Below, one piece after another: positions 628 to 6,540 of a stretch of DNA of 49,647 nt; positions within the stretch are counted from its first letter, which is position 1, and each line of letters opens with the position of its first letter. The notes beneath the pieces were generated by a model. It searched no databases. It saw only the letters and a list, made by a program, of their open reading frames with translations, and was not told where the DNA came from. Position numbers and translations under genes: made by a program. Source of the stretch: Convolutriloba macropyga (Eukaryota); NCBI RefSeq assembly GCF_964194025.1, contig NC_134468.1:32440354-32490000 (forward strand). Direction: 5' to 3'.

Positions 628-2568
628 TCATTTCAGGGGCTCTTCTGTATCATCTTCCCATTCTTTGATCGTCGTTTCGTTCTGTACTTCTGTCTTGTCC
701 TTCCATCCGTTACGTGACATATCAATTTTGTCTGGATCACTATCATTTTTGTCCGGACTCACACTCAATACAGGTTTTAGTTGAAGAGCTGAGTTTTTAG
801 AAATTTAGTGTAAGGTCGCAAATTTGTTTGAATCTGTGATAAAGAGACGTAAACAAGATTTGATGTAAAGTATTTCCACAAAAGACTACTACTGTAAGCA
901 TGAGTGAAAGTTGCAACAGCAAATAAGTTTCCAGTTTCGATGTTAGAGTTGGCTTAATGACACGAATATTGTCCGCTATCGGCTTAGCAATTGCGTCAAG
1001 CTGATCAGTCTCCGTAAGTTGAGGGCTGTCTATCAACTGTGTCTTAACGCCTTGCAGTAACTTTATCCCAGCATCAGTTTTGGACTCAAGGCAGGGAAGC
1101 TCTTCGAGATCAGGTAGCTCACACAGCATGCTTTGAAGTGGAACTGATAATGAAACATTTATCCTGTTTCCTTTGATTTTTTCGCAGGTATTTAAATCTG
1201 GCCTAATCTTGATGTGTTTTGGAAACAATTGTGTACCGCGTTCCAATGTTAGGAAGCAGATGTTACATCCATGATGTTCTCTCCGTTTCGGCGTTTTCTT
1301 CTGATTGAGGCTGCACTCACGCAAGGTAAAAGAGTCCGATGCAGATGTCAGCAACCAGATTCCATAAACCTAATTTCTGGCTTTTTCAGGCAAACGTGGG
1401 TGCTTTTTTCTGTTTCGCAAACAGTAACTGCTGTCATAGGACTTTAGAAGATCAATGTTGCTAGACACGATGACTGACTGAGATGCGTCTCCATCGTCTG
1501 ATGACAGATTCTGTAAATAGAAGAACCGATGCATTTGTCAAATTGCTCCTTTATTAGAACAGTAGATTCCATAGAATCTTCTGAGATCGCGAGATATTGG
1601 GCTTTTACTAATCACTGAATGGCTTCATTTGGGTCAAGCTGCGGCATAGGCACGGTCACCGCTTTGTAGATCTGAAAGGCCGTTTGACTGGAAGCAATTG
1701 GTATCGCAAGGGTCAACAGCAAACTTTCTGGGATTGTTGTTACTTCTCGTAACAACTTTGATTTATAATACGAATGAAGTTCGTTTGTTGGTATTGCTAA
1801 GCCCAGTCTGTCTGGTGATGTTTTTTGGCTTTTATAGACTGATTTCAAGACAGCGAGTGGTGATGACTCGCGTGCCATCAAAGATATTGTCAATCTCTGA
1901 TCCAGCCATGTGGGCACCTTGCTCAAAAGATTGTTTTTTTAATGCATAAAGGACGACTTTGTAGCTCATCACTTCAGCATAAACAAGATTAAGAAGTGAA
2001 GCGACGGTGTCAAGATTATAGATCAGTTGTTGTTTGGAGTACAAGGTTTGCTTGCAATCACTTAGGATGTGAAAATTACGTCCTATTGTTGAAAACGGTT
2101 CTTCTATAATATTCCAATTCTTATTCTGGTTTTCAGCCATCAGTTGCTCTATGCGTCGAATTTCAGCATTTTCATTTGTAACAAGAACAACTTTTCATTC
2201 GTTGCGTGTTCCACTTCTTTGACATAATCTGTTAGTGTCATTGTGTATTCATGCATTCACTAGATATTTTCTGCGTTCCCTTTTGATTTGTCTGCGCATG
2301 ATGCAAAGATTCCTAAAATTCCACAGCTTGCTCCAATACCAGTCAGTAGAACTATTGGTCCGGAAAGTCCAACTCCGGCGATTCAGAGTCATCGTCCCTT
2401 CGTATACGATTTGATTTTTCTGTGGCTTGTATAACAGTTCGGCAGTCTCATTTCGAATTAAGTCGGTTTTGCGTTGACTTTCTCGTTGATTTTTGCCCAG
2501 AGCCAACTTACAGGGAAAGAATCGTCTGTTGAATTAAATGGTATAGAAAATCAAGCGAGCAGAATTCT
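628..2568 (-). pseudogene. env: env-like class I fusion glycoprotein, copy 1 (frameshifted)
   Basis: Stitched frames: SNRIRR furin-like site (~2398-2409); Gly-rich hydrophobic IAGVGLSGPIVLLTGIGASCGILGIFASC; heptad-like helix (NAENI..EIRRIEQLMAENQNKNW); Cys-containing ectodomain (ORFs 1832-2140, 1612-1926, 797-1354); TM segment YLLLQLSLMLTVVVFC; acidic tail. Confidence 0.8.
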
Positions 2569-2644
2569 GATGGTGTTCTACATTTATCTCCTACTAGTTT
2601 TGAAAACAGTTCCTTGATTTCGGCTTTCAATTCAACAGTGAAAG

Positions 2645-3190
2645 ACTTTTTTCGTTTTGACACACATTAAGTTACTGATTTTTTCCAGCACGCATGTTTT
2701 GCGATGGTAATGAAACTCTAAGCGATCTGGAGTATGAGCTTGCTTCAATACTCAAAAACTATATCGTTTTTAATCGGATGAACTACAGTTCTCATGGCTG
2801 TATTCATTTTTCTTCCGATATTTTCAGCTGTATTGTAAATAATAGCTGTTTCTCCCACTTCGTAATTTTTGATTCCCGAAAAAATAGGACAGGAATTGTT
2901 GAGCAAGTGCTTTCGGCAACTATGGTAACGTTATTTCGAAAAAAACTCAACCAAAACAAAACTTGAGTTAATTTTGAGGTTTTCGCATACACGTTCACGG
3001 CAAAAATTTTTGTCGGAATTGGGCCAAACCAACAGTTCCCTGTATAGTTCGTCCAAAATTAGGGTCAAAAGCCCCCTATGTTGTATCTCTGACCTTATCT
3101 TCAAGGTCAAATTCCACTTTGAAATTTCAACTTTTCGTTTTTTTCAACATTTACGCTATTCTTATTAATTGTACATATCCTGAGGAGCTT
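2645..3190 (-). pseudogene. Accessory ORF (ORF-X) between pol and env, copy 1, truncated
   Basis: Homologous to 6545-7330. About 280 bp present in copy 2 (6501-6780) is replaced here by ~75 bp of unrelated filler (2569-2645). Confidence 0.5.
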
Positions 3191-4554
3191 CCAATGTAAA
3201 GTAATCCGTATCCAGAGTCGTAAAAAATTATTATTTGCACTTTGTATTAAGTTTCAGTCTCCACAAATAATGAAAAAACTGAAACAGTTAAAATTTTTGC
3301 AAGATAATTAATCTAACCTTTTCTATTTTTCCCATAAGGGCACAGATACTCTAGGATTTTCTTCAAACTTAACGGTTGATCCATCATCTTCTTCATTGAA
3401 ATCATCACTATCGATAATAATAATAATAGTTGTTTTCAAATCAAACAGATTGTAAAATTCTTTGTTCATTGGTCAAACTATCACGCTTTCGTTTAAACTA
3501 ACAAAAGCAGCAGATTGTTGTTGAGAGATTGGTTGATTATCAGGTATTTGTTTTCTAAGCAAATTTTCCATGTTAAGGGCTTACAAGCTATCAGCTCGCT
3601 GTTCGTTCTGTCGCATTATTTGACTGTTGAACTGGACATGGTCTGGTTGCTCAGCTTTCATTATCGTTTTCCTGTTCAGTTGCCTCCTCTGCTGGTTGAA
3701 CGCCTGGTTCTACTGGTTCCTGTATTACGTGGGGTAATGAAGTGGGCGCCATCGATGATGCTGTTACAAGTGGAATTATCACTGGCGCAGGCGGCATAGG
3801 TATTGGTGGTGCAGGTCCTATAGTTTTTGCAAGACTAAATTTTGCGCTTTTGCGGGTGCTGGGTAAGTTTTTTCTTGGTGCTAAGTCAATTGGATATCTT
3901 CAATAAGCGTTCGAAGATGGTCATCGAACATTGCTGGCTCACTTCTGTGTTTTGTGAGGCTTAGGTCTGTTTCAAATTTTTGTGGGTCAATTGGCTATAA
4001 GTCATCGGGTTTTTCGGATGGATTGATTGAGTGCTGACGAACTCTGTGTACACAATGGTAAAGTTTGTTCCAGTCTTACAAATGATGTAATTCGATTTTG
4101 TTAGAACTTTTTCAACAGGATACAAAAGTAACCAGATTGGTACTTACCGGCACAATCTAATTGTGCCTCAAGTTTTGGGTTGAGAAGCAGGCAGTATATT
4201 GCATTTTTTAAATCAAAATGACTAAACTTCCATCAAACATCATAATTATCAATGGACAGGGATATATCAATTCCTAATAATCAAATTGAAATAGCCACTT
4301 CATTTAACAAACAGTCAATGAGATTGACTTATGATTTCAATATAAATTTTTTTGTCAAAATTTTGATTCTCATGTTTTCTCTGTGTACGTTAAACTTTAG
4401 TGTCGTGAAATGTAGCATGTGCTGCAATTTTTGGGACAGGGTTTTTCATTATTCCGAGTGGTCCTGCATTCGTTGGATCCAGTCCTAAGTCTCCGCTGAA
4501 AGTTCTGCGTTGAGAGTGTAAACTGGCAACGGAATTGCGTCTACCTACGTCAGT

Positions 4555-6540
4555 TCATTTCAGGGGTTCTTCTGTATCATCTTCCCATTCTTGGATCGTC
4601 GTTTCGTTCTGTATTTTTGTCTTGTCCTTCCATCCGTTACGTGATTTATCAATTTTGTCCGGATCATTGTCACTTTTGTCCGGACTCACACTCAATACAG
4701 GTTTTAATTGAAGATCGCCGTGCTTAGTTTTTAGAAATTTAGTGTAAGGTCGCGAATTTGTTTGAATCTGTGATAAAGAGACGTAAACAAGATTTGAGGT
4801 AAAAACTTTCCACAAAAGACTATTACTGTAAGCATGAGTGAAAGTTTCAACAGCAAGTAAATTTCCAGTTGCGATGTTAGAGTTGGCTTAATGACACGCA
4901 TATTGTCCGCTATCGGCTTAGCAATTGCGTCAAGCTGATCGGTCTCCGTAAGTTGAGGGCTGTCTATCAACTTTGTTTTAACGCCTCGCAGTAACTTTAT
5001 CCCAGCATCAGTTTTGGATTCAAAGCAGGGAAGCTCTTCGAGATCAGGTAGCTCAGATAGTATGCTTTGAAGTGGAACTGTTAATGAAATATTTATCCTG
5101 TTTCCTTTGATTTTATCGCAGGTATTTAAACCTGGCCTAATCTTGATGTGTTTTGGAATTAATTATGTACCGCGTTCCAATGTTAGGAAGCAGATGTTAC
5201 ATCCATGATGTTCTCTACGTTTCGGCGTTTTCTTCTGATTGAGGCTGCACTCACGCAAGGTAAAAGAGTCCGATGCAGATGTCAGCAACCAGATTCCATA
5301 AACCTAATTTCTGGCTTTTTCAGGCACACATGGTGGCTTTTTTCTGTTTCGCAAACAGTAACTGCTGTCATAGGACTTTAGAAGATCAATGTTGCTAGAC
5401 ACGATGACTGACTGAGATGCGTCTCCATCGTCTGATGACAGATTCTGTAAATAGAAGAACCGATGCATTTGTCAAATTGCTCCTTTATTAGAACAGTAGA
5501 TTCCATAGAATCTTCTGAGATCGCGAGATATTGGGCTTTTACTAATCACTGAATGGCTTCATTTGGGTGAAGCTGCGGCATTGGCACGGTCACCGCTTTG
5601 TAGATCTGAAAGGCCGTTTGACTGGAAGCAAGTGGTATCGCAAGGGTCAACAGCAAACTTTCTGGGATTGTTGTTACTTCTCGTAACAACTTTGATTTAT
5701 AATACGAATGAAGTTCGTTTGTTGGTATTGCTAGGCCCAGTCTGTCTGGTGATGTTTTTTGGCTTTTATAGACTGATTTCAAGACAACGAGTGGTGATGA
5801 CTCGCGTGCCATCAAAGATATTGTCAATCTCTGATCCAGCCATGTGGGCACCTTGCTCAAAAGATTGTTTTTTAATGCATAAAGGACGACTTTGTAGCTC
5901 ATCACTTCAGCATAAACAAGATTAAGAAGTGAAGCGATGGTGTCAAGATTTTAGATCAGTTGTTGATTGGAGTACAAGGTTTGCTTGCAATCACTTAGGA
6001 TGTGAAAATTACGTCCTATTGTTGAAAACGGTTCTTCTATAATATTCCAATTCTTATTCTGGTTTTCAGCCATCAGTTGCTCTATGCGTCGAATTTCAGC
6101 ATTTTCATTTGTAACAAGAAAAACTTTTCATTCGTTGCGTGTTCCACTTCTTTGACATAATCTGTTGGTGTCATTGTGTATTCATGCATTCACTAGATAT
6201 TTTCTGCGTTCCCTTTTGATTTGTCTGCGCATGATGCAAAGATTCCTAAAATTCCACAGCTTGCTCCAATACCAGTCAGTAGAACTCTTGGTCCGGAAAG
6301 TCCAATTCCGGCGATTCAGAGTCATCGTCCTTTCGTATACGATTTGATTTTTCTGAGGCCTGTTTAACAGTTTGGCAGTCTCTTTTCGAATTAAATCGGT
6401 TTTGCGTTGACTTCCTCGTTGATTTTTGCCCATAGCCAACCTACAATGAAAGGGTCGTCTGTTGAATTAAATGGTATGGAAAATCAAGCGAGCAGAATTC
6501 GGATCATTCGAGCAGAAATTGTTTGACGATTTTGGCTTTG
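4555..6540 (-). pseudogene. env: env-like class I fusion glycoprotein, copy 2 (frameshifted)
   Basis: Same motifs as copy 1 (cleavage site reads RIRK); ORFs 6182-6439, 5546-5905, 4731-4970, 4555-4815. Confidence 0.8.

Follow-up and report, generated by a model that had tools for sequence, protein, structure and literature searches.

A dead, tandemly duplicated Ty3/Gypsy env in Convolutriloba macropyga and the predicted F-type fusogen of its intact relatives

What was the envelope-like gene that lies twice within a decayed retroelement of Convolutriloba macropyga, and did it once carry particles between cells? We address this question for G000:C1:32440354-32490000, a stretch of a 1.18-Gb genome; the full stretch of 49,647 nt is called the window throughout. 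We describe a Ty3/Gypsy envelope gene (env) that has been duplicated in tandem and is dead. Intact relatives of this gene are predicted to encode a class I fusogen of the F type, and the accessory genes that travel with it in related elements likely counter host defences. We place the probability of this reading at about 0.85.

Dead env copies and their intact relatives

The two env-like stretches, at ~6494-4393 (copy B) and 2633-466 (copy A), match an env profile at best E-values of 1e-123 and 1e-108. Both are non-functional: the env at this locus is dead. Against sister frames, copy A has 7 in-frame stops per 618 aligned codons and copy B has 8 per 620; against a sister, they carry 12 and 10 frameshifting indels, with 8 positions common to both, counts that depend on the alignment and on a reference sister with a break of its own. 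About 63 and 86 codons at the 5' end, including the signal peptide, are gone from the two copies. Because breaks are common to A and B, env would already have been broken when it was duplicated. The ratio of nonsynonymous to synonymous substitution rates (dN/dS) between the copies is 0.98 [0.55-1.75], which argues for neutral drift since the duplication. Either window copy compared with three sisters gives 0.30-0.38, which points to purifying selection on env while the subfamilies diverged; among recent sister copies, the ratio is 0.63-0.97.

Where in frame, the window pieces are 68-77% identical to P0001, 628 aa of a sister env. The order of parts read by the first-pass annotation is present in both copies: basic site, Gly-rich peptide, heptad helices, Cys-rich ectodomain, second helix, transmembrane (TM) segment, and tail. 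Its R-I-R-R cleavage motif stands in the lower copy (2408-2397), but the upper copy reads R-I-R-K (6341-6330).

The character of the protein is best read from relatives. A protein database search with P0001 returned 127 relatives, and the env search gathered 2210 representatives at E <=0.001. Every one of the 45 database relatives of at least 700 aa has an LFG fusion-peptide core; 40 of them have [RK]x[RK]R no more than 28 aa before the fusion peptide, compared with 1 of 585 background windows. In intact relatives, the signal peptide, basic cleavage site, fusion peptide, and TM segment fall in one open reading frame (ORF), an arrangement that the first-pass annotation could only stitch together across frames. 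The outcome named there as refuting the fusogen reading, these parts scattered over several frames in intact copies, was not seen. Single-sequence searches of Pfam and PDB with the window env fragments and P0001 returned nothing, and cluster look-ups gave no useful names. Pfam Baculo_F is matched by 7 of 66 aligned env members (best 3.6e-7).

Structure and feature searches were made with P0015, a natural full-length relative 60% identical to P0001. In the PDB, every Foldseek row shown for its model is a paramyxo/pneumovirus F (best E 1.1e-8); in BFVD, the best match is a nucleopolyhedrovirus (baculovirus) F at E 3.6e-18. In VIA, the model aligns with prefusion F of respiratory syncytial virus at Z 9.0 (374 of 427 residues, 6.5 A) and with postfusion Nipah F at Z 8.9 (286 aligned, 4.2 A). 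Its ESM features score 0.93 to Fusion_gly clusters. The prediction that the env of this clade is an F-type fusogen is thus well supported by searches on an intact relative, in keeping with the class I assignment first made from the window. Env of the gB type and class I Env of the retroviral type were considered and rejected.

One provirus and its family

Six-frame reading and self-BLAST gave the structure of the locus, and comparison with sisters gave its boundaries (Table 1). The window holds a single Ty3/Gypsy provirus on the minus strand, from ~13864 down to 26 (sister map, self-BLAST), which retains LTR (long terminal repeat) fragments only. The extent of 628..6540 proposed earlier falls well inside it, and the Gypsy pol expected upstream is confirmed: reverse transcriptase (RT), RNase H (RH), and integrase (IN) zinc-finger remnants keep the Gypsy order upstream of env on the same strand (Pfam). 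By self-BLAST, the segment from the C-terminal tail of integrase to the end of env is present twice, head-to-tail, as 4194-9115 (unit B) and 267-4197 (unit A), with env regions 95.3% identical across 2313 bp. The two env stretches noticed earlier are therefore parts of one provirus with an internal duplication, not two proviruses; two independent insertions are rejected. Events at the locus would have run from insertion through decay and loss of a Pol macrodomain to tandem duplication and further neutral decay.

Table 1. Features of the provirus in the window (positions count from the first base of the window)
Feature	Position	Strand	Basis
3' LTR, first 73 bp, remainder lost	26..98	-	81% match to both LTRs of full-length sister
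Unit A of the duplication, 3.9 kb, from the C-terminal tail of integrase to the 3' region of env	267..4197	-	self-BLAST; sister map
Env copy A, predicted F-type fusogen pseudogene, signal peptide missing	466..2633	-	profile; sister alignment
TM segment, copy A	839..910	-	sister alignment
Gly-rich fusion-peptide region, copy A, broken	2320..2390	-	sister alignment
RIRR basic furin-type cleavage motif, copy A	2397..2408	-	sequence reading
Original unit B, 4.9 kb	4194..9115	-	self-BLAST
Env copy B, predicted F-type fusogen pseudogene, signal peptide missing	4393..6494	-	profile; sister alignment
TM segment, copy B	4773..4844	-	sister alignment
Fusion-peptide region, copy B, broken	6253..6323	-	sister alignment
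RIRK, degenerate cleavage motif, copy B	6330..6341	-	sequence reading
Remnant of last conserved block of antisense accessory gene, OTU-like by motif	6527..6802	+	64-67% to sister frames
Internal 0.79-kb duplication inside unit B	7041-7822 / 7830-8585	-	self-BLAST
0.77-kb deletion junction that removed the TARG1-like macrodomain at the Pol C-terminus	8393..8394	-	sister map
Integrase, broken	8943..10046	-	Integrase_H2C2 E 5.8e-8 (Pfam); tblastn
RT and RNase H, broken	10615..12085	-	RT_RNaseH E 1.4e-13 (Pfam); sister map; tblastn
gag region, broken with deletions	12367..13689	-	81-82% to sister gag DNA
5' LTR, 177-bp internal piece	13688..13864	-	sister map
More duplicated pieces of the LTR-gag-pol half of the same element, LINE-like fragments interleaved	17023..20944	-	self-BLAST; sister map

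A search with the window DNA found 107 candidates, of which 40 were scored, yielding 53 matches; A and B apart, all are at most 85% identical to the query. Three sisters of 13.9 kb, on C8, C13, and C2, are 95-96% identical to one another and 81-83% identical to the window; the env of these closest sisters is split by 1-2 breaks. Their LTRs of 525 bp are 96.6-97.3% identical. TG..CA ends and 5-bp target duplications were read in the C8, C2, and C9 elements. The sisters have a primer binding site starting with TGG; ARAGORN found no tRNA in 5 loci, and no primer tRNA was assigned. Where gag and pol overlap there is a heptamer, AAAAAAC, which presumably acts in frameshifting. An open Pol of a relative shows, by Pfam, protease (PR) at 73-165, RT at 490-653, RH at 747-853, and IN at 1062-1229; Pfam finds a single RNase H stretch in it, and its sequence has a bridge of 210 aa. 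By pol order PR-RT-RH-IN, LTRs, primer site, and target duplications, the element is assigned to Ty3/Gypsy (Metaviridae).

Relatives share the layout LTR-gag-pol(PR-RT-RH-IN-macro)-antisense slot-env-LTR. We examined 20 elements, 9 picked by macrodomain, 5 by JmjC, 2 by OTU-like block, and 3 by env DNA, plus the window; within this set, 16 have the macrodomain, 18 env, 10 JmjC, and 5 the OTU-like gene, and env follows pol in 18 of the 20 (fetched DNA). Trees of RT, IN, and env, unrooted and built from elements of this genome, agree save for one weakly supported placement; the long branches of the window copy come partly from off-frame residues and carry no rate signal. The first-pass annotation had suggested a search for intact env copies, and many long env frames are open: the env protein search of the genome yielded 1891 candidates, of which 150 were scored, and ~46 of these occupy frames of at least 745 codons free of stops (hand count). 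In 6 of 11 elements with both LTRs matched (some LTRs partly fetched), the LTRs are 99.1-100% identical, and on this ground the related families look recently mobile. A sequencing-run search with a sister stretch found no RNA run among those listed.

Variation within and around the family extends to other features. The C1j and C1k elements (L159-L160, L167-L168) have LTRs ending in AGT, compared with CA in the rest of the clade. P0420 and P0432, more distant Pol relatives, carry Pfam PF00692 (precomputed domains), which we take to be dUTPase. Beside the C13 sister, L033:205-2784 (+) holds two long ORFs with no Pfam match at E 0.01; we presume from their motifs a resemblance to Polinton-type DNA polymerase B.

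The surroundings of the provirus are rich in repeats. A (TAA)n-type microsatellite of ~1.3 kb (L037:8654-9965) lies just before window base 1 and adjoins the truncated 3' LTR. Between 13235 and 25700 of the window, fragments resembling long interspersed nuclear elements (LINEs; RVT_1 E 1.5e-6 at 14949-15263) are duplicated along with the Gypsy 5' half, and a 3.4-kb unit is repeated at 13235-16565 and 20316-23607. At 26200-36100, a 2.2-2.5 kb unit is repeated head-to-tail about 5 times, its copies being 75-93% alike. Exons of a host C2H2 zinc-finger gene lie at 43195-49014 (+), two of them at Pfam E 1e-14 to 1e-17. Elsewhere in the genome, tandem arrays comprise ~11 env-bearing units of ~5 kb (G000:C6:9642876-9700376), ~11 JmjC-bearing units of 1.14 kb (C2:27097961-27109902), and 3 env units of 3.2 kb (C9:16393073-16400129). 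It seems that parts of retroelements are often amplified in tandem in this genome.

Accessory genes of the clade

Two parts of the ancestral element are mostly deleted from the window copy and escaped the first-pass annotation: a macrodomain at the end of Pol and an antisense slot between pol and env. In the sisters, pol ends with integrase, a Pro-rich acidic linker, and a macrodomain (Pfam Macro 2.6e-5) that aligns with human OARD1/TARG1 at E 3e-15, TK and GCGLD motifs included. We take the Lys of TK and the Asp of GxGxD to be catalytic; TK is present in 10 of 10 aligned copies and GxGxD in 9 of 10. Such a domain would strip ADP-ribose marks. All 7 of the other family copies tested have the macrodomain; all six frames of the window have no macro match, and the deletion junction of unit B recurs in unit A at 3468/3469. 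A genome query with the macrodomain gave 924 candidates, 150 of them scored; 9 long macro frames were fetched, each belongs to a Gypsy Pol, and env follows in 7. The 16 of 20 elements with the domain include the 9 picked by it. In the protein database, it occurs in 11 of 120 RT relatives, always after RT and in 6 of the 11 with both motifs; many of these entries are truncated and some are probably from the same organism. Separately, an uninterrupted nucleosome assembly protein (NAP) ORF at L090:4084-5109 (+) (Pfam NAP E 8e-88) lies 0.7 kb from the point where a family copy breaks off inside the macrodomain; this ORF is likely a retrocopy.

The slot between pol and env measures 2.7-4.4 kb in the clade and holds antisense genes. 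Env was earlier placed directly after integrase; in the full-length sisters, ~2.7 kb with an antisense gene intervenes. In related families, not that of the window, the slot encodes a JmjC domain, with 97 matches in the genome; 30 loci were fetched, and in all 16 with env in the flank, JmjC is antisense to env. Its H-x-D...H and Lys are nearly invariant in the alignment, its profile matches KDM7/PHF8/PHF2 at E 4e-6 to 3e-5, and a low-confidence model matches Jumonji proteins in fold. Judged by iron triad and predicted cupin fold, this gene is of the JmjC 2-oxoglutarate (2OG) oxygenase type. The product would hydroxylate or demethylate, its best matches being the KDM7/PHF8 histone demethylases. 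A longer JmjC type is linked to it by alignment only, at 21% identity.

The window's own family carries a different antisense gene of several blocks, with H..H/CxxC, GxxGxC[VL]F, and HCxP motifs that two other families also have; GxxGxC[VL]F and HCxP are conserved in all three. From these motifs we assume an OTU-like gene, and the product may be a deubiquitinase. The gene looks spliced, and a GTRAG scan in this family found no donors at the expected block ends; ESM features of the antisense N-terminal frame gave only leads below 0.9, to integrase zinc-finger families. In the window remnant, earlier blocks are deleted and a His kept in sisters is Gln. In both IN and env trees, the sister of one JmjC element is an OTU-like element (support 99-100), which suggests that slot content has been exchanged between families.

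Immediately upstream of env, 11 of the 20 elements, none of them in the window's family, have a further antisense ORF of ~100 aa that encodes a CC-x-NG motif and a TM segment; examples with the Cys/N-glycan motif and TM segment are L087:1446-1748 (+) and L145:2259-2552 (-). One family adds a basic tail to it, a form that may resemble FAST-like or viroporin-like proteins. The pol-env interval reaches 4.0-4.4 kb in the C6b and C2b elements (L076-L077, L074-L075, L089); it holds three direct repeats of 170-190 bp spaced ~1.07 kb apart, and no enzyme gene was identified in it.

Competing readings and known systems

Several points weigh against the reading that we prefer. The evidence for the clade comes from sequence and predicted structure. 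The structural model is that of the relative P0015, not of the window's own broken gene, and it is a monomer with a predicted local distance difference test score (pLDDT) of 70 and a predicted template modelling score (pTM) of 0.57. Its Foldseek TM-scores are only 0.2-0.4 at a root-mean-square deviation of at least 16 A, values that may be expected because the model is a monomer of a metastable trimer. A Z of ~9 in VIA is not high for helical proteins, and coronavirus spike S2 ties at Z 9.4, but over ~200 residues only. Run against the PDB, the env profile found no sequence below E 0.02, with weak matches to influenza HA2 and F only. As for the accessory genes, macrodomain motifs are degenerate in 5 of the 11 outside Pol proteins that carry the domain, and comparisons of diverged, decayed copies within the family give the macrodomain a dN/dS of 0.38-0.93, the intervals mostly extending to 1; selection on the domain in the window's family is weakly shown. 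The JmjC model has a pLDDT of 52, the longer JmjC type (381 aa) on its own has no Pfam or PDB match, and the OTU label failed Pfam and PDB profile tests on separate blocks.

How far the reading extends is a matter of degree. The window copy could be the relic of a still-mobile clade of infectious "complex" errantiviruses that carry an ADP-ribose eraser in Pol, a swappable JmjC or OTU-like eraser, and a small membrane protein; we advance this larger proposal tentatively, at somewhat less than even odds. By analogy with class I fusogens, newly made Env would bear a signal peptide and trimerise, a furin-type protease would cut at RxxR and free the Gly-rich fusion peptide, and the heptad repeats HR1 and HR2 would form a six-helix bundle that fuses membranes; particles would thereby pass from cell to cell, as Drosophila gypsy does from soma to germline. 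An infectious ancestor is plausible, and the counter-defence kit of the proposed clade may be likened to that of large RNA viruses. Alternatively, env may be a fusogen by descent in elements that are now intracellular, with env and the accessory genes as passengers or in cell-surface or regulatory roles. This is consistent with evidence for the clade that is genomic throughout, with the dN/dS of recent sister copies, and with transmission having been shown only for Drosophila elements (PMC13524379). We nevertheless consider it rather unlikely, since subfamilies differ at a dN/dS of 0.30-0.38 despite neutral terminal branches, the cleavage site is kept in 40 of 45 relatives, many long env frames are open, and env follows pol in the trees.

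The origin of env invites a further question, raised by the first-pass annotation: whether env was captured from an exogenous virus in this lineage, independent of the insect errantiviruses. The close relatives do form a tight family, a pattern scan of IMG/VR gave 17 matches with no relative among them, and the feature search ranked paramyxovirus-type clusters over Baculo_F clusters. Set against this are the Baculo_F matches and baculovirus F as best structure match, the breadth of the 2210 representatives, and env-pol congruence within the clade in trees of this genome's elements. Chary & Hayashi (eLife 2026; PMC13524379) argue that env is ancient and did not come from baculoviruses by capture, with one ancient F-type env pool across metazoans in which env co-diverges with pol across phyla. 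A separate capture is thus unsupported and, in our judgement, improbable. Least credible is that the duplicated env was domesticated by the host, as a syncytin-like gene, or that the duplication is an assembly artefact; two adjacent env copies might invite either idea, to which we give next to no weight. The stops, frameshifts, missing signal peptide, and A-B dN/dS lead us to reject domestication, and the copies, 4.7% different and with private deletions, do not look like one set of reads assembled twice; further repeats, both close by and at other loci of the genome, show this kind of duplication.

The window copy itself is non-functional, and its env extends a published class by one clade. 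Descriptions of Gypsy elements with env give them three ORFs, and the accessory kit would be of more consequence than env. If the reading is true, an F fusogen combined with a macrodomain and a JmjC or OTU-like gene would suggest that ADP-ribosylation, histone methylation, and ubiquitin serve as invertebrate defences against retroelements, and the kit would supply small, purifiable enzymes with which to test such defences.

The closest known systems include the F-type ancient errantiviruses. The survey catalogues 1,512 Ty3/gypsy elements with env from across the invertebrates, among them elements whose F-type Env has a furin site and a fusion peptide (PMC13524379), so the env finding is of a known kind. 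Shared features are gag-pol-env order, LTRs, signal peptide, furin site, fusion peptide, TM segment, co-divergence of env with pol, and recent multicopy families (PMC13524379). In contrast, Pol ends here in a TARG1-like macrodomain and antisense genes fill an interval of 2.7-4.4 kb, whereas the main text of the survey has no occurrence of "macro", "antisense", or "accessory" and describes only chromodomains at the Pol C-terminus (PMC13524379). Elements such as these may be under-counted, because the pol-env gap exceeds the survey's first-pass limit of 1 kb, a range widened for some phyla (PMC13524379). Drosophila errantiviruses (gypsy, ZAM) and baculovirus F are alike in Baculo_F similarity and in the best predicted-structure match, a nucleopolyhedrovirus F, yet identity to baculovirus F in the structural alignment is ~14%. 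In the bridge of pol, RNase H is joined by a mini domain in ancient errantiviruses and by a second, pseudo-RNase H in those of insects (PMC13524379); the single Pfam RNase H stretch here may thus differ from the insect type. Infectivity, shown for gypsy and ZAM, is a proposal for this clade.

Lokiretroviruses (Wang & Han; PMC7947760) also have an Env like paramyxo/pneumovirus F, with an RXKR site, and some have an extra gene. Compared by description, they are vertebrate elements and sister to Retroviridae (PMC7947760), whereas the present Pol is of the Ty3/Gypsy kind with RT_RNaseH and Integrase_H2C2, and the extra genes are others. Each part of the kit is singly known in some retroelement: Tat/Ogre-like Gypsy elements of orchids carry AlkB, a 2-oxoglutarate-dependent dioxygenase (PMC9289625), Retand has antisense ORFs after pol (PMC11963269), and epsilon-like endogenous retroviruses of fish have macro domain ORFs (Basta 2009, as cited in PMC4977317). 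Our search of the open-access literature found no report of the combination. The accessory kit of this clade is probably a new variant: here a macrodomain after integrase, a JmjC or OTU-like gene, a small TM ORF, and an F-type env come together in one animal Gypsy clade, and, unlike in those single cases, the content of the slot differs between sister families.

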